Assembly: GCF_056712565.1 (NCBI RefSeq)
Contig: NZ_CM160072.1
Length of the DNA stretch: 64,000 nt
Direction: 5' to 3' (one strand)
The translations under genes and the position numbers were made by a program. The notes under the pieces were generated by a model, which was given only the letters and a program-made list of their open reading frames with translations, had not been told where the DNA came from and searched no databases. This document shows positions 3,418 to 55,253 of the stretch, piece after piece (position 1 is the stretch's first letter; every line of letters begins with the position of its first letter).

Positions 3418-3768
3418 TCACTTCAGTCGTTCACGGGCCGTCTTCGCCTTATGACACGGCCAGCACAGGCTCTGCAGATTGCAGTCTGCATCAGTGCCGC
3501 CATGCGCTTTAGGGATGATGTGGTCAACGGTTTTCGCCTCACGCACCACACCGACATGCAGGCACAACTGACACAGGCCTTTGTCACGCTTCAGCACGCG
3601 CGCGCGGATAACATCCCACTTCGAACCGTAGCCGCGCTGGTGACGGGATTGTCCTGGCTTGTATTGTTTCCAGCCTTCGCTTTTGTGGCTTTCACAATAG
3701 CCTGACGGATCAGTGGTGGTTTGGCGGCAGCCGCGAACGCGGCAGGCTTTTGGGGTTCGTGGGGGCAT
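3418..3768 (-). CDS. HNH endonuclease (terminase-associated)
   Basis: 116 aa with cysteine-rich zinc-finger pairs (CRVRGCR, CQLCLH, CWPCH) and DHIIPKAHGG HNH motif; canonical position upstream of terminase genes. Confidence 0.85.
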   Translation of the reverse strand: MPPRTPKACRVRGCRQTTTDPSGYCESHKSEGWKQYKPGQSRHQRGYGSKWDVIRARVLKRDKGLCQLCLHVGVVREAKTVDHIIPKAHGGTDADCNLQSLCWPCHKAKTARERLK

Positions 3769-5650: not shown

Positions 5651-5942
5651 TTTTCACCCCTGTCAGTCGTTCCCAGAAGTACGTCAGTGCAACCGAACCC
5701 ATCGCACCACTAATCCCCGCAGTTGCGAGAATCATGTAAATACTGAATCCACTTTCGATACTGATTAGGCCACCAATAACACCGGTGAATCCTGATACAA
5801 CTATCTGAGCGAGGGCATTTATCCAGCTCCACGTTGCTTTACTCTGCTTCACATCAATCAGGTAACGGACAAGCCCCCCCCAACCTGCGATGATCAGCAA
5901 AACAAGCCAGAACGCTCCGGCAAGATTCTCTTTTTCGTGCAT
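5637..5942 (-). CDS. Holin (alternative upstream start at 6041)
   Basis: Small multi-TM protein overlapping the lysozyme start; internal start MHEKENLAGAFWLVLLIIAGWGG... gives ~101 aa with about three TM helices. Confidence 0.55.
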   Translation of the reverse strand: MHEKENLAGAFWLVLLIIAGWGGLVRYLIDVKQSKATWSWINALAQIVVSGFTGVIGGLISIESGFSIYMILATAGISGAMGSVALTYFWERLTGVKNAKS

Positions 5943-6051
5943 ATGAATAGCCGCAGTTTCGCCTCCGACAGAAAATCGGAGCGTGAAATGATATGTTGAT
6001 TTATTATTAATTCGAAAATTACATTCTAATTCATCAGGCATTGATGATTTT

Positions 6052-6090
6052 ATAATAATAAAGGCCGTTCGTTACGGCCTTTATTATTGA
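6052..6090 (-). terminator. Hairpin terminator between the late-region moron and the holin
   Basis: Perfect stem AAAGGCCGT / ACGGCCTTT (6060..6082) with 5-nt loop, flanked by A/T runs. Confidence 0.5.
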
Positions 6091-6510: not shown

Positions 6511-6614
6511 TGAAAATTATCAACGGCAGACATACAAAGCCCATCGTTGAGAAAATCTTATCCATATTTTTTGAAAAATGCAAGCTTCATGTCACTATCT
6601 TCGGCGAAAATCAC

Positions 6615-7367
6615 TTATCTCGTCACCTTTCTCAATTGTGTTTCAGCATATGCTTCTTCCTGCCAGCACTTTGTTACTAGTTTATCAATTACGTCTGCAT
6701 ATCCTTTGTACCACTGATAATCAGTCAGGTCTGGAACCAGCTTCTGGACATGACGTCGTGCCAGTGTAGTCGGTAAACGGCTAAACCGGTTTCCATTGCA
6801 ACGCCCACAAGTCTTATAAACAGGCGTGCCATGAAGCCGGGTTCTTTTTTCATCCAGGACAATACCTTTACCCTTACACCCTCTGCACGCCGTGCTGACT
6901 TCTCCCTTGCCATGACAATGCTGACACAGTTCCTTCACCCACTCTTCTTTGATAACGGATTCCCCGCTTCTGGAATGTTTCACCACTTCGCGCAATACAT
7001 TATGAAATCCAGTACCAGTACAATGCTCACAGCGAGCCTTACTTGCCGCAGACCTGGAATAATCAGCAAAGGCAAAATTCACAAGGTAAGGGATGATCTG
7101 TAACCGGGTTTCTTCACTCAATTTGTTCAATGTCGGGTTATCCAGTGCCATCGCGTAATTGAGCAGGCCTTCAATCGCAAACTGAGGATCCTGAACACCA
7201 ACTTTTGCCAGGAATAAGGCAAACCCAAGCGGTGCTTTCGACTGCACCATCCCCTGCGCAGCCATTACATCCGTAATTGTTAAACCACCCGAGCCTGTCG
7301 CCGATGCGTCATCGCTCAATTTTGGAGATTTTGGGGAGTAATATTTCGGTAAGGCTTCAAGGTTCAT
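6615..7367 (-). CDS. Late-gene antitermination protein Q-like
   Basis: Multiple CxxC zinc-binding pairs (CEHCTGTG, CQHCHGKG, CRGCKGKG, CGRCNGN); located immediately upstream of tR' and the lysis cassette. Start may be 7409 or internal ATG 7367. Confidence 0.6.
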   Translation of the reverse strand: MNLEALPKYYSPKSPKLSDDASATGSGGLTITDVMAAQGMVQSKAPLGFALFLAKVGVQDPQFAIEGLLNYAMALDNPTLNKLSEETRLQIIPYLVNFAFADYSRSAASKARCEHCTGTGFHNVLREVVKHSRSGESVIKEEWVKELCQHCHGKGEVSTACRGCKGKGIVLDEKRTRLHGTPVYKTCGRCNGNRFSRLPTTLARRHVQKLVPDLTDYQWYKGYADVIDKLVTKCWQEEAYAETQLRKVTR

Positions 7368-17090: not shown

Positions 17091-17957
17091 ATGAATCAAA
17101 ATCCATTCTCATTCTATGACTTTCTTGGATATTTAATACCAGGTGGTTTTTTTATCCTATTAATGTATTTCTGTGGTTTGACATTCGATCTAGATATTGT
17201 TATTGACTTAAGTGAATTGCTCAGAGGTCAAAGTCAAATCTTTGGCATTTTGAACTACGCTTCAATAGTTATTATATCTTATATAGCTGGACATTTTATT
17301 TCTATCACGTCAGCATTTTTTATCGAAAAATACATGAATAAAGAATTAGGATATCCTTCCAAATATCTATTTAAAAAATTGATAGATACCTCAGAAAGCA
17401 TTTGTAGCCCATCATGCGATGAGAGAAGCGCTGATAAAAAAACAAAAATAAAGAATCGCATAATCAAATGCGTATTATGTCCAATAATACTATGGGATTT
17501 TATAACACAAAAACTATGTTATTCTCAATCTCTACCATTTCATTTAGCTAATACAACATGGTTAATGATCAAAGAAGGTTATGAGAAAAAGTTCATAACA
17601 AATCGCCAATTATTACAAGATAAAAACGGACTTGATGATGATCTCTTCAGATTGGCATATCATTATGTTTATGAGTTTTCAAAACAACATCAAACAAAAA
17701 TTCAAAACTATGTTGCATTATATGGTTTTTGCAGAAACATATGTTTAATCTTTATAATTTCATTTTGGGTATCAGTTCCAACCTTTATTTATCGATTATG
17801 TACTCATAGTGATTATCTTTATAGTTTACTTTCAATAATGCTTAGCTTTTTCTTCGTCTATGTTTTCTATGTTGGTTTTGTTAAATTTTATAGAAGATAT
17901 ACTTTAGAAGTATTAATGGCATTTGCTGTACTTCAAAGTAACGACACTATTCGTTAA
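17091..17957 (+). CDS. Integral membrane protein, very low GC (candidate exclusion/abortive-infection moron)
   Basis: ~288 aa from ATG 17091 (RBS GGAGAG); two predicted TM helices at each end with a ~130-aa soluble central region; strongly AT-rich codon usage. Confidence 0.5.
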   Translation: MNQNPFSFYDFLGYLIPGGFFILLMYFCGLTFDLDIVIDLSELLRGQSQIFGILNYASIVIISYIAGHFISITSAFFIEKYMNKELGYPSKYLFKKLIDTSESICSPSCDERSADKKTKIKNRIIKCVLCPIILWDFITQKLCYSQSLPFHLANTTWLMIKEGYEKKFITNRQLLQDKNGLDDDLFRLAYHYVYEFSKQHQTKIQNYVALYGFCRNICLIFIISFWVSVPTFIYRLCTHSDYLYSLLSIMLSFFFVYVFYVGFVKFYRRYTLEVLMAFAVLQSNDTIR

Positions 17958-17998
17958 TAATGTTGCTCCCGTGTGCAGACGGGATAATGGAGAAACGT

Positions 17999-18205
17999 AT
18001 GCTGAACCTCGATTGTGTTCCTATCTCAACTTATTGCAAAGAAACTGGCGAAACTCCTGAAGCAATAAACAAACGTGTACAGCGCGGTGTTTGGCGTGAA
18101 GGTGTTCAGGTTTTAAAGGTTGAAGGCGTTAAGGAGAGGTGGATTGATCTTAGTGAGGTTGCAAAATGGGCCAGACAAAACTGCTCAAACTACCGCGCGG
18201 CGTAA
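17999..18205 (+). CDS. Excisionase-like protein
   Basis: Small basic protein directly upstream of and overlapping the integrase gene; GGAG RBS 8 nt before ATG 17999 (alternative start 17987). Confidence 0.55.
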   Translation: MLNLDCVPISTYCKETGETPEAINKRVQRGVWREGVQVLKVEGVKERWIDLSEVAKWARQNCSNYRAA

Positions 18206-19338
18206 CAATCAGGAAACACCACCAGGGAGAAACGATCAATATAACTTTCACCTACAAAGGAGTTAGATGTCGTGAGCCGCTTTCCAATCTGGAAGTAACA
18301 CCAAAGAACATTAAATACGCCGAGCGTACACTCGGCGAAATCCATAATAAGATCGAAAGGGGAACATTCATTTATGCAGAATATTTTCCCCGTTCTGCTC
18401 GTTTGAAAATTTTTGGTAATGCTGCTGCAAGCAAAACGGTAAAGATGTACCTGGACGAATATCTTGAAATCTGCGAAACAAGAAAACTTTCACCCTCTAC
18501 GATTGGTGGCTATAAAAAATGCCGTAGTGCGTTAGCCTCACTTCACATTTGCCCTGCAAGTGAATTAACACCAGCAACCCTGAAAGCGTGGATTCAAAGC
18601 CAGAAAACAACCTTAAAAACCATTCGCAACCAGTTATCTTTCCTACGGTCAGCACTTGATGAAGCCGTGACCGATGGGGTACTTCAAATTAACCCCGTAT
18701 CGTTAGTAACAGCTTCGCGCTACCAAAGTGATAAGTCAGAAGCAGAAAGCAGCTATGTGGTTGATCCGCTATCACCAGCAGAAGTTGATGCATTACTAGC
18801 AGCAGCCGGAAACAAACAATGGGAAAATCTGTTCCGGTTCGCCATACATACAGGCCTGCGTAGTTCTGAATTATGTGCCCTACGATGGCATGATATCGAC
18901 TTTGTTGGAAAAACAGCCCATGTTCAGAGCGCAAGTGTTGTCGGAGTTATCAAAGGAACAAAGACAAAAGCCGGTACCCGTAAAGTTGAACTGACTGAAG
19001 AAGCAATGTTGGCGTTGATAAACCAGAAGCCATTTACATTCATGAAGGATGCTACTGTCTTTGAAGATCCAAAGACCAATAAACCCTGGGCAAGTGCTGA
19101 TGCAATTAGGAAAAAAGCATGGGTGCCAACATTGCGAAAAGCAGGTATTCGTTACAGAAACCCATATCAAACCAGGCATACATTCGCCACCAGCCATATC
19201 AGCCGGGGAGCAAACCTGTTTTGGCTTGCGGCTCAAATGGGCCATAAAGGGCCTGAAATGTTATTCAGGCACTATGGACAATACTTGAAAGAGTATGATG
19301 GGAGGGCAAGTATCAAGGATAAAAAGGCTTTATTTTAA
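18166..19338 (+). CDS. Tyrosine integrase (phage integrase family)
   Basis: 390 aa with catalytic-domain signatures (LRSSELCALRWHDID; HTFATSHISRGANLFWLAAQMGHKGPEMLFRHYGQY), reading toward the att remnant. Confidence 0.9.
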   Translation: MGQTKLLKLPRGVTIRKHHQGETINITFTYKGVRCREPLSNLEVTPKNIKYAERTLGEIHNKIERGTFIYAEYFPRSARLKIFGNAAASKTVKMYLDEYLEICETRKLSPSTIGGYKKCRSALASLHICPASELTPATLKAWIQSQKTTLKTIRNQLSFLRSALDEAVTDGVLQINPVSLVTASRYQSDKSEAESSYVVDPLSPAEVDALLAAAGNKQWENLFRFAIHTGLRSSELCALRWHDIDFVGKTAHVQSASVVGVIKGTKTKAGTRKVELTEEAMLALINQKPFTFMKDATVFEDPKTNKPWASADAIRKKAWVPTLRKAGIRYRNPYQTRHTFATSHISRGANLFWLAAQMGHKGPEMLFRHYGQYLKEYDGRASIKDKKALF

Positions 19339-19947
19339 GTCATTATGCCAATCGTCTACTGTTTGAAACCAAATTTTTAACCTTTGCATAAAGGTACGAT
19401 CCTTTTTGGGAGGGTGGTACCTTTGAAAAGAAGTATGTAACGCTTCGATAACTCCCATACAAGCATCAATTACTTCTTGTGCTTTAACCGGGCGATCGGC
19501 ATCTGAAAGCTTGTGAGCGACCTCACAATCCAGAGTTGCTTTCTCTAGTACAGATGAGAACACCTCGTCAGGTATATACAGTCCTCTGCTTTCCAAAATG
19601 CAAATCAGTTTGGAAACTTGTTGAGCTTTAGCCAAGATAGTTAACAAGTATGAAACAGAAGCCTTTGTTCTATCCTTTTGCAACCTTAACAATCGATGCT
19701 TTGATGCTCTAATTTTAGGTTGAGTTGTCTGACTGAGCCAATAGTTAGAAGAAATATCAGAAATTTCAATAACTAACTTTGAAATAGCATCAATAATTGA
19801 TTTCGATTCAGAACGTGTCGCCAGTTTTACAGAATTATTGTACGCAACTCGCCATCCAATGAAAACTAAGCAGACGCTAACTACTGTGATACACCACGAA
19901 TACTGTCCTATTTGTGCTACTAATGACATTGGTTCCGTACTGATCAA
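19330..19947 (-). CDS. Membrane-anchored protein, third gene of the integrase-proximal cassette
   Basis: 205 aa; single N-terminal TM helix (YSWCITVVSVCLVFIGW) then a ~170-aa soluble domain with no recognisable motif; 3' end overlaps the integrase 3' end; 10-bp gap to the upstream gene. Confidence 0.5.
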   Translation of the reverse strand: MISTEPMSLVAQIGQYSWCITVVSVCLVFIGWRVAYNNSVKLATRSESKSIIDAISKLVIEISDISSNYWLSQTTQPKIRASKHRLLRLQKDRTKASVSYLLTILAKAQQVSKLICILESRGLYIPDEVFSSVLEKATLDCEVAHKLSDADRPVKAQEVIDACMGVIEALHTSFQRYHPPKKDRTFMQRLKIWFQTVDDWHNDLK

Positions 19948-19957
19948 CTATCGCCTC

Positions 19958-20284
19958 TTATACTCTTTCTGGTTGTGCTAAATCAATAAATTTATCAATC
20001 TGTTCTTTGTAGAACGGAACATCACTTTTTATAATCAAACGTGCTTTAACGTTGGCTTTAGGTATCCCTTCCTTACGGATGAGACCTCCAAACGCCTCTT
20101 CTAAGAAAGAGGAACCAACACCCAGTGCTATACCGCGAAAATCAACCACAATCTCCTGTTCAGTACCCTTCAGCGCAGGCACCAAAAACTCTCTACGAAA
20201 TCTTTCCGCACTGTGTGGGCTATCCGTTGTGTAACGTCCGAAAGGTGTTCTGGAGAACTCCTTCGCTATGACGATATTTCTCAT
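19958..20284 (-). CDS. Small STAS-like protein (DUF4325-like), second gene of cassette
   Basis: 108 aa; segment EIVVDFRGIALGVGSSFLEEAFGGL resembles the STAS-like DUF4325 proteins that I recall pairing with GHKL ATPases; 4-bp gap to the upstream ATPase gene. Confidence 0.45.
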   Translation of the reverse strand: MRNIVIAKEFSRTPFGRYTTDSPHSAERFRREFLVPALKGTEQEIVVDFRGIALGVGSSFLEEAFGGLIRKEGIPKANVKARLIIKSDVPFYKEQIDKFIDLAQPERV

Positions 20285-20288
20285 AAAA

Positions 20289-21200
20289 TCATCTCCTGGG
20301 AACCAGCGACCATTGTAGTAAAGTACCCGGTATGTACTCAGCTAGCTTCTCACATCGAGGACTACTGTCATTAGAATTATAGCTATAACGAGCCCTTCCT
20401 ATTAGTATCAGAAGTGTCTCATTATCCTCACAACCTGCCCCAATAGGTCTCTTGATATCTTCAGAGCCATTTCCCCGTCCGGAACCAACAAAGCGGGATT
20501 CCCCTACTAACATAGCTCTTTCCACAGAAGATACTTCGTTTTGAATGCTATGACCATCACCATTAGGCACGAAACTTCTATAAATCCCCAATCCAAGGTC
20601 ACAAACGATAAAAACGACTTTATTTTCATCACGATTGAACCAAGCGCACTGCCACCATCGTTTACCTTTGAGAAGCTGAATATCTGACTCGAACCCCTCA
20701 TCTTCATACGCATGATGAGAAACATTGAGCAAAGCTTCACTAATCGCTGTCAGCAGTAAGCCTAACTGTTCATTATTAAGCAGAGCACTTTTCTGCAGCA
20801 TGAGTACTGTTTCAACAATATGCTCGTAAGGTTCGACAGCTGACTGAAAGTATCGTTCCTCCCTCGTAAGTGCATTCAGTTTCTCTTCTGTGCCAGCAAG
20901 CAAAGCACGAGCAAGTCCAGTACCAACGATCCATCTATGCCCAGATGGGTTATCATCCTTTTTAGGCCATTTAAAACGTATAAAATTAGGGTCCCGGGTT
21001 AAAAATTGAGCTCTATTTACTATGGCAAAGAACAGTACCGATGCCGCAGCTGAGGCAAATTTTACCTTGGACAAATCAACTATAACTCGACCTTTATTTT
21101 TTACTCCAATCGATTCAATCGAGTTGATGAAGTTCAATGTCCCAGCCCTAGAATCATCTGAGTAAATGCAAAATTTGCTTGGGGGTACCAGTATGGTCAT
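20289..21200 (-). CDS. GHKL (Bergerat-fold, histidine-kinase-like) ATPase, first gene of cassette
   Basis: 303 aa; N-box-like EALLNVSHHAY, G1 box VCDLGLGI (DxGxG), G2-like GSGRGNG; ~130-aa N-terminal extension of unknown fold; AT-rich promoter-like region upstream (21201..21340). Confidence 0.6.
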   Translation of the reverse strand: MTILVPPSKFCIYSDDSRAGTLNFINSIESIGVKNKGRVIVDLSKVKFASAAASVLFFAIVNRAQFLTRDPNFIRFKWPKKDDNPSGHRWIVGTGLARALLAGTEEKLNALTREERYFQSAVEPYEHIVETVLMLQKSALLNNEQLGLLLTAISEALLNVSHHAYEDEGFESDIQLLKGKRWWQCAWFNRDENKVVFIVCDLGLGIYRSFVPNGDGHSIQNEVSSVERAMLVGESRFVGSGRGNGSEDIKRPIGAGCEDNETLLILIGRARYSYNSNDSSPRCEKLAEYIPGTLLQWSLVPRR

Positions 21201-21351
21201 AGCGATGTCATTCTTATACGATGGATTTATAGATTATCTACTATTCATAGTTGGTTATGAAGACTGGGATATAACAGTAAAAGATACGTGTAAGATCCGC
21301 AAGATAGTTAATGTCGAAAAAATCATTAATTACATCAAGTTAGTGATATTT

Positions 21352-21376
21352 GGACTCGGGTTCAACTCCCGCCAGC
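21352..21376 (+). other. Partial copy of the ssrA (tmRNA) 3' end: prophage att remnant
   Basis: GGACTCGGGTTCAACTCCCGCCAGC matches the E. coli tmRNA 3' end (GGACGCGGGTTCAACTCCCGCCAGC, recalled from memory) with one mismatch; upstream sequence does not match the tmRNA body, so this is a fragment. Confidence 0.6.
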
Positions 21377-21506
21377 CAATCATGATTGGACGGTGTAAGG
21401 ACTACACCAACAAAAACAGGAAGTTATAAGTCTCAGCAGGACACCGACCAGACGGTGAGGAGACAAAAAAGGATACGCAACGGAGTCGCGACTCCCTATG
21501 ACATTA

Positions 21507-21531
21507 AAGCCCGCTGATGCGGGCTTTTTTA
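21507..21531 (+). terminator. Rho-independent terminator
   Basis: Stem GCCCGC-TGAT-GCGGGC followed by TTTTTT, about 130 nt beyond the ssrA-like fragment. Confidence 0.55.
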
Positions 21532-21899
21532 TTGGTCCTGACCCGCCCTGAATAGAATTCATCCAATTACAGTCCAGACATATACAGTATCCCTCAGCTC
21601 AGTATCAGCTTCTCGACAAATGGTCACTGTTATTTACCCGTTGCCAGAAAGAGAATAATTTGCCCCCATAGCCAGCCTTCCCGGAATCTGTATATTCATT
21701 AATATTGTTATCGATTCCATCAAGTAACATAGGTTGGATGCGATTGATCTTACTCACATTAGTCGACACGGAACTCAGTAAGTTGAACTCTGAAAAAGCA
21801 GTTTAAATAGCATTTAAACAAATGCCACCAGTTCGAAAAAGAGTATAAGCACACTTAATATATTGTTTTAATTATTCATTTCCTTTCAACCCAATTCTT

Positions 21900-23038
<1,139 letters not shown>

Positions 23039-23057: not shown

Positions 23058-24326
23058 ATGTATGATTTTTTGATTATTGGCGGCGGCATCATCGGCATGT
23101 CGACCGCCATGCAACTAATTGATGTTTATCCGGATGCCCGCATAGCGTTGCTGGAAAAAGAGCCCGGCCCGGCCTGTCACCAGACGGGCCGCAACAGTGG
23201 CGTAATCCATGCCGGGGTCTATTACACGCCCGGCAGCCTGAAGGCGCAGTTTTGCCTGGCAGGAAACCGCGCCACCAAAGCCTTTTGCGATCAAAACGGT
23301 ATTCGCTACGACAACTGCGGCAAGATGCTGGTCGCCACGTCTGAACTCGAAATGGAACGGATGCGCGCCTTATGGGAACGCACGGCGGCGAACGGAATCG
23401 ATCGCGAGTGGTTAAACGCCGAAGAGCTGCGCGAGCGCGAACCAAATATCACCGGGCTGGGCGGTATTTTTGTGCCGTCCAGCGGCATTGTCAGCTACCG
23501 CGAAGTGACGGCGGCAATGGCAAAAATTTTTCAGGCCAGAGGCGGTGAGATTATCTATAACGCCGAAGTCAGCGCCCTCAGTGAGCATAAAAACGGCGTG
23601 GTGATATGTACCCGTCAGGGCGGTGAATATGAAGCATCGACGCTGATTAGCTGTTCCGGGCTGATGGCTGACCGGCTGGTGAAAATGCTCGGCCTCGAAC
23701 CGGGCTTTATTATCTGCCCGTTCCGCGGCGAGTATTTCCGCCTTGCGCCGGAGCATAACCAGATTGTTAACCACCTGATTTACCCCATTCCCGACCCGGC
23801 AATGCCGTTTTTGGGCGTGCATCTCACCCGCATGATCGACGGCAGTGTGACCGTCGGGCCAAACGCGGTGCTGGCTTTCAAACGCGAAGGCTATCGTAAG
23901 CGCGACTTCTCATTTAGCGACACGCTGGAAATTTTGGGCTCGTCGGGGATTCGCCGGGTGCTGCAAAACCATCTACGCTCAGGACTGGGCGAGATGAAAA
24001 ACTCGCTGTGCAAAAGCGGCTATCTGCGGCTGGTGCAAAAGTATTGTCCCCGGCTTTCGTTAAGCGATCTCCAGCCCTGGCCCGCCGGTGTGCGGGCGCA
24101 GGCGGTATCGCCGGACGGCAAGCTGATTGACGATTTTCTGTTTGTCACCACCCCGCGCACGATCCACACCTGTAATGCGCCCTCCCCGGCAGCGACATCA
24201 GCAATTCCTATTGGTGCGCATATTGTCAGCAAGGTACAAACGCTGTTGGCAAGCCAGAGTAACCCCGGACGCACGCTGCGAGCGGCACGTAGTGTGGATG
24301 CCTTACACGCCGCATTTAATCAATAA
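23058..24326 (+). CDS. lhgO: L-2-hydroxyglutarate oxidase/dehydrogenase
   Basis: 422 aa from MYDFLIIGGGIIGMSTAMQ (FAD-binding GxGxxG); the ORF-track extension upstream is unlikely. Confidence 0.9.
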   Translation: MYDFLIIGGGIIGMSTAMQLIDVYPDARIALLEKEPGPACHQTGRNSGVIHAGVYYTPGSLKAQFCLAGNRATKAFCDQNGIRYDNCGKMLVATSELEMERMRALWERTAANGIDREWLNAEELREREPNITGLGGIFVPSSGIVSYREVTAAMAKIFQARGGEIIYNAEVSALSEHKNGVVICTRQGGEYEASTLISCSGLMADRLVKMLGLEPGFIICPFRGEYFRLAPEHNQIVNHLIYPIPDPAMPFLGVHLTRMIDGSVTVGPNAVLAFKREGYRKRDFSFSDTLEILGSSGIRRVLQNHLRSGLGEMKNSLCKSGYLRLVQKYCPRLSLSDLQPWPAGVRAQAVSPDGKLIDDFLFVTTPRTIHTCNAPSPAATSAIPIGAHIVSKVQTLLASQSNPGRTLRAARSVDALHAAFNQ

Positions 24327-43077: not shown

Positions 43078-43160
43078 TTCGGGCGGATAAGGCGTTTTTG
43101 CCTCATCCGCCGCTCTGTACACAATGCCTGATGCGACGCTGGCGCGTCTTATCATACCTA
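43078..43160. repeat. REP element downstream of proX
   Basis: GCCTGATGCGACGCTGGCGCGTCTTATCA-type imperfect palindrome. Confidence 0.5.
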
Positions 43161-43262: not shown

Positions 43263-44447
43263 ATGACTAAACCTAATCATGAGCTTAGCCCGGCGCTGAT
43301 CGTGCTGATGTCTATCGCCACCGGTCTGGCGGTAGCCAGTAACTATTACGCCCAGCCATTGCTCGACACCATCGCGCGTAACTTTTCCCTTTCCGCCAGT
43401 TCGGCAGGCTTTATTGTTACCGCCGCGCAGTTGGGCTATGCCGCAGGTCTGCTGTTTCTTGTTCCCCTCGGTGATATGTTTGAACGCCGCCGCCTGATTG
43501 TCTCGATGACCTTACTGGCAGCAGGCGGCATGTTAATCACTGCCAGCAGTCAGTCGCTGGCGATGATGATCCTCGGTACAGCATTAACCGGTTTATTTTC
43601 AGTCGTGGCACAAATTCTGGTTCCACTGGCAGCGACGCTGGCTTCACCGGACAAACGCGGCAAAGTGGTTGGCACCATTATGAGCGGTCTGCTATTGGGG
43701 ATCTTACTCGCACGGACCGTTGCCGGATTGCTGGCGAATCTCGGCGGCTGGCGCACCGTCTTTTGGGTTGCTTCGATGTTAATGGCACTGATGGCGCTGG
43801 CATTATGGCGTGGTCTGCCACAAATGAAATCAGAAACCCACCTCAACTACCCACAGTTGTTGGGTTCCGTTTTCAGCATGTTTATCAGCAATAAGATCCT
43901 GCGCACCCGCGCGTTGCTGGGCTGCCTGACCTTTGCCAACTTCAGCATTCTCTGGACCTCAATGGCCTTTTTGCTTGCCGCTCCACCTTTTAACTACAGC
44001 GATGGTGTAATTGGTCTGTTTGGGCTTGCGGGAGCTGCCGGAGCGTTGGGCGCTCGTCCGGCGGGCGGTTTTGCCGATAAGGGCAAATCGCACCACACCA
44101 CAACTTTCGGTCTGCTGCTGCTGTTACTTTCATGGCTGGCAATCTGGTTTGGTCACACTTCCGTACTGGCGCTGATTATCGGCATCCTGGTGCTGGACCT
44201 CACCGTGCAGGGCGTGCATATCACTAACCAGACGGTAATTTATCGAATACACCCTGATGCGCGTAATCGCCTGACCGCAGGTTACATGACCAGCTACTTT
44301 ATTGGCGGTGCCGCTGGTTCGCTAATTTCAGCCTCAGCCTGGCAACATGGCGGTTGGGCTGGCGTGTGTCTGGCTGGCGCGACGATTGCCCTGGTTAACT
44401 TACTGGTCTGGTGGCGAGGTTTTCATCGTCAGGAAGCCGCAAATTAA
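43263..44447 (+). CDS. ygaY: MFS transporter YgaY (intact here)
   Basis: 394 aa with about 12 TM segments; I recall this locus as a pseudogene in K-12. Confidence 0.8.
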   Translation: MTKPNHELSPALIVLMSIATGLAVASNYYAQPLLDTIARNFSLSASSAGFIVTAAQLGYAAGLLFLVPLGDMFERRRLIVSMTLLAAGGMLITASSQSLAMMILGTALTGLFSVVAQILVPLAATLASPDKRGKVVGTIMSGLLLGILLARTVAGLLANLGGWRTVFWVASMLMALMALALWRGLPQMKSETHLNYPQLLGSVFSMFISNKILRTRALLGCLTFANFSILWTSMAFLLAAPPFNYSDGVIGLFGLAGAAGALGARPAGGFADKGKSHHTTTFGLLLLLLSWLAIWFGHTSVLALIIGILVLDLTVQGVHITNQTVIYRIHPDARNRLTAGYMTSYFIGGAAGSLISASAWQHGGWAGVCLAGATIALVNLLVWWRGFHRQEAAN

Positions 44448-44570
44448 GCAATCAGCAACCGTTTTCGTGGCTTTACACTTATAAGGGTGTTAAGAAGCCC
44501 ATCAGTCTGATAAGGTTAAGATATTCATTCAGTCTATTTATAATATTAACAATCGTTAAGCGTACACTCT

Positions 44571-45308
44571 ATGGAAAGCCCTACTCCACAGCCTGCTCCT
44601 GGTTCGGCGACCTTCATGGAAGGATGCAAAGACAGTTTACCGATTGTTATTAGTTATATTCCGGTGGCCTTTGCGTTCGGTCTGAATGCGACCCGTCTGG
44701 GATTCTCTCCTCTCGAAAGCGTTTTTTTCTCCTGCATCATTTATGCAGGCGCGAGCCAGTTCGTCATTACCGCGATGCTGGCAGCCGGGAGTAGTTTGTG
44801 GATTGCTGCACTGACCGTCATGGCAATGGATGTTCGCCATGTTTTGTATGGCCCGTCACTGCGTAGCCGTATTATTCAGCGTCTGCAAAAATCGAAAACC
44901 GCCCTGTGGGCATTTGGCCTGACGGATGAGGTTTTTGCCGCCGCAACCGCAAAACTGGTACGCAATAATCGCCGCTGGAGCGAGAACTGGATGATCGGCA
45001 TTGCCTTCAGTTCATGGTCATCGTGGGTATTTGGTACGGTAATAGGGGCATTCTCCGGCAGCGGCTTGCTGCAAGGATATCCCGCCGTTGAAGCTGCATT
45101 AGGTTTTATGCTTCCGGCACTCTTTATGAGTTTCCTGCTCGCCTCTTTCCAGCGCAAACAATCTCTTTGCGTTACCGCAGCGTTAGTTGGTGCCCTTGCA
45201 GGCGTAACGCTATTTTCTATTCCCGTCGCCATTCTGGCAGGCATTGTCTGTGGCTGCCTCACTGCGTTAATCCAGGCATTCTGGCAAGGAGCGCCCGATG
45301 AGCTATGA
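44571..45308 (+). CDS. ygaZ: L-valine exporter subunit YgaZ (AzlC family)
   Basis: 245 aa. Confidence 0.9.
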
Positions 45309-51816: not shown

Positions 51817-51889
51817 GAAAGACGCGCATTTGTTATCATCATCCCTGAATTCAGAGATGAAATTTTGGCCACTCACGAGTGGCCTTTTT
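51817..51889 (+). ncRNA. micA: Small regulatory RNA MicA (SraD)
   Basis: GAAAGACGCGCATTTGTTATCATCATCCCTGAATTCAGAGATGAAATTTTGGCCACTCACGAGTGGCCTTTTT matches the MicA sequence I recall, including the terminator hairpin; lies between luxS and gshA. Confidence 0.85.
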
Positions 51890-54799: not shown

Positions 54800-54876
54800 T
54801 GGTGCATCCGGGAGGATTCGAACCTCCGACCGCTCGGTTCGTAGCCGAGTACTCTATCCAGCTGAGCTACGGATGC
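54800..54876 (-). tRNA. tRNA-Arg (anticodon ACG)
   Basis: 77-nt reverse complement gives GCATCCGTAGCTCAGCTGGATAGAGTACTCGGCTACGAACCGAGCGGTCGGAGGTTCGAATCCTCCCGGATGCACCA. Confidence 0.9.
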
Positions 54877-54939
54877 ATCGGGAAAATTTATTTTACTACT
54901 GATATTGATATCGCTACTAAAGCCATATCAAGTAAGAGA

Positions 54940-55016
54940 TGGTGCATCCGGGAGGATTCGAACCTCCGACCGCTCGGTTCGTAGCCGAGTACTCTATCCA
55001 GCTGAGCTACGGATGC
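54940..55016 (-). tRNA. tRNA-Arg (anticodon ACG)
   Basis: Identical 77-nt copy. Confidence 0.9.
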
Positions 55017-55080
55017 ATCGGGAAACTTACTTTACTGCAGATTTTTTGATACCGCCACTAAAGCCGTATCAAGTAAGAGA

Positions 55081-55157
55081 TGGTGCATCCGGGAGGATTC
55101 GAACCTCCGACCGCTCGGTTCGTAGCCGAGTACTCTATCCAGCTGAGCTACGGATGC
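55081..55157 (-). tRNA. tRNA-Arg (anticodon ACG)
   Basis: Identical 77-nt copy. Confidence 0.9.
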
Positions 55158-55160
55158 AAA

Positions 55161-55253
55161 TGGCGGTGAGGCGGGGATTCGAACCCCGGATGCAGCTTTT
55201 GACCGCATACTCCCTTAGCAGGGGAGCGCCTTCAGCCTCTCGGCCACCTCACC
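55161..55253 (-). tRNA. serV: tRNA-Ser (anticodon GCU)
   Basis: 93-nt reverse complement gives GGTGAGGTGGCCGAGAGGCTGAAGGCGCTCCCCTGCTAAGGGAGTATGCGGTCAAAAGCTGCATCCGGGGTTCGAATCCCCGCCTCACCGCCA, with the long variable arm of a class II tRNA. Confidence 0.9.

Follow-up and report, generated by a model that had tools for sequence, protein, structure and literature searches.

The window, by which we mean the whole 64,000 nucleotide stretch of DNA analysed (NCBI RefSeq assembly GCF_056712565.1, contig NZ_CM160072.1), contains a 25 nt displaced fragment of the tmRNA gene ssrA (21352-21376, + strand), and this 25-mer is the attR, or distal, junction of a 43.1 kb prophage. We are highly confident in the fuller explanation, that it is the attR core of a 43.1 kb temperate phage integrated in ssrA and that it carries a damaged stub of the gene. 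As an attR stub of an ssrA-integrated prophage it is real and ordinary in kind; what is additional is the damage, a 5 nt deletion falling between 21376 and 21377. Loss of these 5 nt, which include a base of the G.U identity pair, predicts that curing of the prophage harms trans-translation, for which a 1 nt lesion in CP4-57 and CP4So provides a precedent; by analogy with those elements, the damage to the stub probably couples loss of the prophage to loss of tmRNA function. The prediction is relevant to prophage stability, to strain engineering (an ssrA mutant may result from curing) and to the re-use of an integration hotspot by successive elements. The right boundary of this 43 kb prophage, found in ATCC 11775, the E. 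coli type strain, and in other complete genomes including APEC O1 and NU14, is fixed to the base.

The fragment comprises the T arm and the start of the acceptor 3' strand. It reads GGACTCGGGTTCAACTCCCGCCAGC, and its counterpart in E. coli ssrA (nt 332-356 of 363) reads GGACGCGGGTTCAACTCCCGCCAGC; 24 of the 25 positions match, the sole mismatch being a G to T change at 21356. The original prediction had described this 25 nt match, with its one mismatch, as the 3' end of tmRNA. Alignment against full-length ssrA upholds the homology and extends it into the trailer, but places the fragment at nt 332-356 rather than at the extreme terminus. The 25-mer pattern occurs once in the window when both strands are scanned and in none of 100 dinucleotide-preserving shuffles of the window, so that no occurrence is expected by chance. 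No tmRNA gene is found in the window by ARAGORN, nor by Rfam at its gathering threshold. With permissive Rfam settings the sole tmRNA hit is one truncated at its 5' end (21200-21382, 14.2 bits, E = 8e-4, model positions 178-374); the tmRNA body is therefore absent ahead of the 25-mer, just as had been predicted.

Seven nucleotides, TCCACCA, complete ssrA beyond the point at which the 25-mer ends; 5 nt are deleted here, and homology then picks up with CCAATCATGATTGG, a perfect 14 bp palindrome (21376-21389) that overlaps the CCA end of ssrA in intact loci and is kept both in chromosomal flanks and in phage attP. Where the empty site reads ...CCAGCTCCACCAATCATGATTGG..., the window reads ...CCAGCCAATCATGATTGG..., which is 5 bases fewer (CTCCA, equivalently TCCAC). 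In an alignment of attB, attL and attR this deletion (21376/21377, + strand) corresponds to ssrA nt 356-360 or 357-361, and it takes out U357 of the G.U identity pair together with most of the acceptor/CCA end. Past 21376 the homology follows the native sequence downstream of ssrA as far as its terminator (21506-21535); the native 3' trailer with this intrinsic terminator, recognized in a terminator scan as a stem at 21506-21527 and a T run, occupies 21377-21535 on the + strand. To the left of the core lies the P arm (21201-21351, +), AT-rich non-coding phage DNA defined by comparison of carrier genomes, of which at least the last 75 nt (about 21277-21351) are constant across all compared genomes that carry the window phage.

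The other end of the element lies outside the window and was located in an identical genome. Comparison of 17900-22100 shows 100% identity of the window to E. coli ATCC 11775 [NZ_CP033092.2] and likewise to APEC O1, NU14 and other complete E. coli genomes. ATCC 11775 has an annotated intact ssrA of 363 nt (44440-44802 in the retrieved locus), preceded by smpB, whose CCA end maps to window coordinate -21741, 21.7 kb upstream of the window start. This ssrA, at attL, is 43,124 bp from the attR fragment, and the trailer and terminator behind the intact gene are a slightly diverged copy that is phage-borne. attL and attR thus form an imperfect direct repeat of 185 and 179 nt, respectively (168 identical columns, 11 mismatches, 6 gap columns), the attR copy being 21352-21530 of the window. 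The earlier expectation of an intact upstream ssrA with a matching repeat is borne out, and its reading of the fragment as the duplicated att core of an ssrA-integrated element holds as to attR, but the repeat is about 180 nt long rather than 25, imperfect, and shortened by the 5 nt deletion. Recurrence of the 25-mer at other att sites had been named as a finding that would speak against this origin; in the source genome the repeat occurs at two places only, attL and attR.

The Islander principle recognizes an integrated element by a target gene restored at one end and, at the other, a displaced 3' piece of that gene in unchanged orientation, with an integrase gene close to one of the ends (PMC4383910). 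All of these signature features are present here: the intact target gene, the same-orientation 3' fragment, a near-end tyrosine integrase, and relatives with an empty site. The window element does not differ in kind from this generic tRNA/tmRNA-gene island signature, with which 'Traffic at the tmRNA gene' (Williams, 2003) is reportedly associated as well.

On the chromosomal side, the ssrA-glaH intergenic spacer (21377-22060, +) is the same in empty-site B2 strains and shares 680 of 684 aligned columns with that of E. coli 'clone D i2'. 'clone D i2' is one of many genomes in which this spacer comes immediately after ssrA and leads into glaH. Because the spacer is the same as at the empty site, all of the DNA to the right of the fragment is chromosome, and glaH (csiD; 22061-23038, +, from the list of open reading frames and the annotation of the identical record) is the first core gene past the prophage, as the original prediction had proposed for csiD. 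ssrA and glaH/csiD are natural neighbours in the ATCC 11775-type background, and their adjacency makes the locus cleanly comparable with empty-site relatives. The locus had also been described as the one that the unrelated element CP4-57 occupies in K-12, directly abutting csiD. That the two elements are unrelated is supported by their integrases (see below), but CP4-57 does not abut csiD in K-12: some 11 kb separate them, holding ypjA, pinH, ypjB, ypjC, ileY and ygaQ.

The right-hand half of the 43.1 kb prophage occupies 1-21351 of the window, as derived from the ATCC 11775 annotation and coordinate mapping, and runs in the order portal gene end, terminase, lysis genes, Q-like antiterminator, replication genes, repressor and early genes, xis and int, and P arm; the left half, with attL and ssrA, lies upstream. 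The ATCC 11775 annotation places cargo and tail-fibre genes behind attL and lists as virion genes a Mu-like baseplate, sheath, tube, HK97-type head and P27-type small terminase; lysis genes, a Q-like antiterminator, RusA, replication genes, a LexA-family repressor with a Cro-like partner, xis and int make up the remainder. The prophage is apparently complete. It had been called lambdoid, which is apt for the early, regulatory and lysis genes (the repressor/Cro-like pair, RusA, the Q-like antiterminator and a holin-endolysin set, all known from the annotation of the identical record only) but not for the tail: a lambda-like non-contractile tail is absent, and the annotated sheath, tube, DNA-circularization protein and baseplate V/gp46/J proteins belong to a contractile one. 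A variant of the prophage in strain ZJ3920 contains an IS1 and is missing a large part of the early region; its two ends are the same, with intact ssrA at the other end.

Near the right end are an excisionase gene (17960-18205, +; phrog_2917 excisionase, E = 8e-45) and a gene for a PhiNP-type, ssrA-specific tyrosine integrase (18166-19338, +) with Pfam domains Arm-DNA-bind_2, Phage_int_SAM_5 and Phage_integrase. The integrase is identical to Citrobacter phage PhiNP Int at 353 of 387 residues (91%) and 86% identical to the integrase of phage LLS at the amino acid level. Its only resemblance to CP4-57 IntA is a 25% local match over 89 aa (E = 0.009), and by this sequence comparison it is unrelated to that P4-type protein. 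Both int and xis read toward the fragment, as had been noted for the integrase, with the correction that int is 2 kb from attR and that three cargo genes on the opposite strand (19330-21200, -) lie in between. These encode proteins of 205, 108 and 303 aa: the 303 aa protein has a weak match to HATPase_c_2 (anti-sigma/histidine-kinase-like ATPase), the 108 aa protein is STAS-like, and the 205 aa protein has no known domain by Pfam, in which it has no match. The cargo genes have no PADLOC match and no NCBIfam match. In related phages this position is taken by different genes: PhiNP and isolate AF6 encode an AAA ATPase and a DNA methylase there, and LLS has a single hypothetical gene. The cargo of the window phage could be an uncharacterised partner-switching or defence module.

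ssrA is a hotspot for many phage types in E. coli (PMC3603311), and the closest model for the present element is the temperate phage PhiNP, described as a myovirus, for which sequenced K-12 lysogens place integration at a 25 bp attP/attB core, GGTTCAACTCCCGCCAGCTCCACCA, at the 3' end of ssrA, with the gene reconstituted (PMC6456863). This core is visible at the ends of the PhiNP record [OR565852]. PhiNP shares with the window phage the xis-int order, the orientation toward attP, the cargo slot between int and attP, and a trailer-like P' arm after the core. It differs in its cargo, as noted above for the ATPase and methylase genes against the HATPase-like/STAS-like module, in a P-arm mismatch located at a different T-stem position, and in the attR copy of its record, which ends in an intact CCACCA whereas the window attR is 5 nt short. 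The free Escherichia phage LLS [PQ299149] carries the T arm, an intact TCCACCA, the palindrome CCAATCATGATTGG, trailer and terminator as one block, annotated 'tmRNA pseudogene / attP'. This is the very layout that we infer for the attP of the window phage, from which LLS differs by its intact acceptor/CCA end, its P-arm mismatches and its cargo gene.

The precedent for a damaged stub comes from elements with another type of integrase. In K-12, the annotated psaA is the attR stub at the right end of CP4-57; it reads ...CCGCCAGCCCACCAATCATGATTGG... and lacks T357 (23473-23499 in the retrieved locus). Excision of CP4-57 passes the T357 deletion to ssrA, with the result that tmRNA is inactivated and ArfA takes over ribosome rescue (PMC10107115); excision of CP4So from Shewanella oneidensis likewise inactivates ssrA by way of delta-T357 (PMC5148205). 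Like the window element, both are integrated in ssrA and have a displaced fragment with a lesion in the acceptor 3' strand that includes U357. They differ from it in encoding P4-type IntA, in being cryptic islands (the window element is apparently a complete phage) and in having a lesion of 1 nt rather than 5. By this analogy, the window attR would be a more severe, 5 nt version of the delta-T357 switch, in another integrase family.

The following events account for these observations. A 43.1 kb temperate phage, which combines int/xis of PhiNP type with lambda-like early and lysis genes, an HK97-like head and a tail of the contractile kind, integrated into ssrA by tyrosine-integrase site-specific recombination and displaced the 3' end of the gene. 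Its attP would have brought along its own ssrA 3' end and roughly 150 nt of trailer and terminator; this copy now completes a functional ssrA at attL, 21.7 kb upstream of the window, while the old chromosomal 3' end and trailer are those found at attR (21352-21535), adjoining the native spacer and glaH/csiD. On this model the G to T change at 21356 is likely to be phage-derived, and the chromosome would be the source of the deleted acceptor/CCA segment, a displaced fragment that has decayed; such a fragment may predate the present prophage, having passed from one ssrA occupant to the next. Precise excision would then fuse the ssrA body to the deleted end, giving a tmRNA unable to form its acceptor stem, with an attB ending ...CCCGCCAGCCAATCATG (deleted) and an attP ending ...CCAGCTCCACCAATCATG as products; alternatively, if the overlap region spans the lesion, excision may be impeded. 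Because of the analogy with CP4-57 and CP4So, we expect that excision probably yields a defective ssrA.

The position of strand exchange determines which partner contributed the deletion. In the window lysogen alone the crossover is bracketed only to 21357-21402, that is, between the phage-side mismatch at 21356 and the first attL/attR difference at 21403, and the 5 nt deletion falls inside this bracket; the attL of the window phage is compatible with a PhiNP-type attP core. Strand exchange probably occurred 5' of the deletion or across it, because PhiNP exchange has been placed experimentally within the last 25 bp of ssrA. In K-12 the DNA after ssrA is that of CP4-57, without the palindrome, and PhiNP integrates there even so, within the 25 bp core.

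Comparison across genomes shows the same P arm (at least 75 nt identical, the T mismatch included) joined to five different right-hand parts. These are the 5 nt-deleted end, in the window and in the genomes sharing its sequence; a full-length end altered at two bases, C to A in the T loop and U357 to A, in HH97; an intact end with a variant palindrome in C31; an intact end with a K-12-type flank adjoining ypjA in Ecol_545 and C1; and, in MEI7BO1-21, the P' arm of a CP4-57-like element directly after CCACCA, in a tandem array. The P arm is constant and the right-hand parts differ; variation therefore starts to the right of the P arm. Two of these junctions must temper a simple reading, in that the T-loop substitution in the HH97 attR does not sit easily with an overlap region in the T loop, and the MEI7BO1-21 tandem junction has a 1 nt deletion beside the CP4-57-type P' arm, a result not predicted by simple conservative exchange. 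The MEI7BO1-21 array at ssrA (2500-2700 in the retrieved locus) consists of the window phage followed by the CP4-57-like island, with the island integrase about 200 bp past the junction; T357 is missing at this middle junction, and a second, distal junction is not present, IS3/IS30 insertions having removed the distal end of the island.

Conversely, at least five unrelated left flanks (P arms), P2/Fels-2-like ones among them, precede the 5 nt-deleted junction, which is seen on four flank types. The last 46 nt of ssrA are reproduced without a mismatch in the genomes of free P2-like phages. In the viral-contig samples no 5 nt-deleted end stands behind an ssrA body. Among 5,426 genomes there is a single case of an ssrA body joined to such an end, the natural isolate E. 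coli WB61 [NZ_CP020025.1], which has exactly the same 5 nt deletion at an empty site with a K-12-type flank, ypjA being next. The WB61 gene (359 nt, 5711-6069 in the retrieved locus) ends ...CCCGCCAGCCAATCATG; its tmRNA falls from 296 to 270 bits in Rfam, and ARAGORN is unable to place or pair a normal 5' end. WB61 is presumably a trans-translation-impaired strain that has lost an element. The same 5,426 genomes include no cured ST95-type genome with a deleted ssrA. Outside E. coli, Mangrovibacter phragmitis has the same 5 nt deletion behind a CP4-57-like P arm with a diverged flank (6596-6626 in the retrieved locus), which suggests either recurrence or linkage of the deletion to the element rather than to the chromosome. 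It was the only species returned by a scan of genome contigs for the deleted junction, one that did not return the E. coli representative and so gives no species-wide picture. Exact P-arm scans of IMG/VR and of metagenome contigs gave no match to the attP of the window phage, and the phage collection contains its relatives PhiNP and LLS only, with no attP of the window phage.

Lesions in displaced fragments were counted in a sample anchored on the conserved trailer, and so independent of the state of the junction, in which 73 junctions were parsed from viral contigs (IMG/VR); earlier samples gathered with exact junction patterns are biased by the pattern, and the frequencies quoted are those of the flank-anchored sample. 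All 15 junctions behind an ssrA body are intact. Behind foreign P-arm DNA there are 58, 40 of them intact and 18 with a lesion, figures that count sequences and not independent events: T357 is absent from 10 (with 8 distinct left contexts), 4 nt are missing from two, 5 nt from three, 6 nt from one and 2 nt from one, and the last has a substitution. All of the deletions can be written with one left boundary, immediately after CCAGC. Small deletions of 1, 2, 4, 5 and 6 nt are found only in displaced ssrA fragments, apart from the delta-5 of WB61 at an empty site. As a general observation, such deletions in displaced fragments are confined to the acceptor/CCA segment and occur with many element types in at least two genera.

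This pattern may stem from selection, from an integrase-associated hotspot or from stepwise slippage. We entertain, as a tentative proposal that we rate below an even chance by a wide measure, that the acceptor/CCA lesions, along with the U357 to A change of HH97, are a recurrent trait, either selected or made by the integrase, which makes ssrA elements hard to lose, and that the stub is inherited by successive unrelated occupants. If this were true, the lesions would sit in just those bases that excision returns to ssrA, so that clean loss of an element would break trans-translation; each new occupant would supply a working 3' end, and the window prophage would be one such dependent pairing. 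A rival account, which we find similarly doubtful, needs neither history nor function: the deletion would be neutral, recent and post-integrational in the window lineage, and identical junctions elsewhere would reflect independent slippage. Displaced fragments are free of selection, and a route can be drawn on paper, from delta-T to CCCACCA, then through loss of one CCA repeat to delta-4, and through slippage in the C run to delta-5 and delta-6, every step of which is observed. This account is nonetheless hard to reconcile with the identical 5 nt junction behind at least five unrelated P arms and on four flank types, or with the concentration of small deletions in 17 of 58 displaced fragments within a 7 nt window, against about 2 of 58 with indels in the next 40 nt (a figure read off the printed sequences rather than computed). 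Delta-T, as the first step, also lies outside any repeat.

A second rival accepts the same attR but assigns the deletion to the phage. In this account the ssrA-like segment of attP is degenerate and the exchange takes place 3' of the deletion, for instance at the palindrome CCAATCATGATTGG, so that excision would restore a perfect ssrA, with an intact attB ending ...CCAGCTCCACCA and an attP carrying ...CCAGCCAATC. The bracket 21357-21402 permits such an exchange; the symmetry of the palindrome suits a core site, and the palindrome is conserved in phage attP. HH97, behind the same P arm, has substitutions through the T loop and U357, like unconstrained phage DNA, and in Mangrovibacter, another genus, the deletion is linked to a CP4-57-like P arm. 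Set against this are the recombination of PhiNP Int (91% identical) in K-12 without the palindrome, on a core that ends in CCACCA, and the MEI7BO1-21 junction, where the P arm meets CP4-57 P' DNA immediately past CCACCA. Moreover, free phage LLS and free P2-like phages have intact ends, at least five attP variants would be needed in one near-identical phage lineage, and in WB61 the deleted end is fused to an ssrA body. The idea of a crossover at the palindrome was down-weighted after the PhiNP integration data (PMC6456863) and the MEI7BO1-21 junction, and we regard phage ownership of the deletion as quite improbable. The motif GGTTCRANYCC is common to tRNA T arms, but an origin of the 25-mer as a chance or unrelated tRNA-like T-arm match, such as the remnant of another tRNA-gene att site, is refuted by the existence of an empty-site allele, by ssrA at the other end of the element, and by agreement at 24 of the 25 positions, a match not expected by chance, from which homology runs 154 nt more into an ssrA-specific trailer, and we give it practically no credence.

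The ssrA trailer of about 150 nt (21376-21535 in the window) is itself kept in the chromosomal flanks of several enterobacterial genera and also in the P' arms of unrelated ssrA-integrating phages. It consists of the palindrome CCAATCATGATTGG, a hairpin whose loop is AGGAC, a near-invariant 75 nt core, a GGAGCCGCGGCTCC hairpin and the terminator, and its second hairpin has compensatory changes (column pair 21/29: CG 7, UA 4, AU 4). The trailer matches no Rfam family; candidate roles include 3' processing of pre-tmRNA and protein-binding sites. The free Escherichia phage Ayreon [MF807953] has about 120 nt of the trailer (3490-3610) beside its integrase, without T arm or acceptor, which suggests a different use of the trailer or a remnant of an ssrA-type attP.

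Elsewhere in the window, three identical tRNA-Arg(ACG) genes followed by tRNA-Ser(GCT) lie at 54800-55253 on the - strand; K-12 presumably has four Arg copies at the same locus (argQ, argZ, argY, argV), in which case this would be a difference in copy number. Rfam also matches naRNA4, a REP-derived nucleoid-associated RNA, barely over threshold at 43081-43158, and the sRNA MicA at 51817-51888, both of them expected core-genome features, located between proVWX/emrAB and luxS/gshA.
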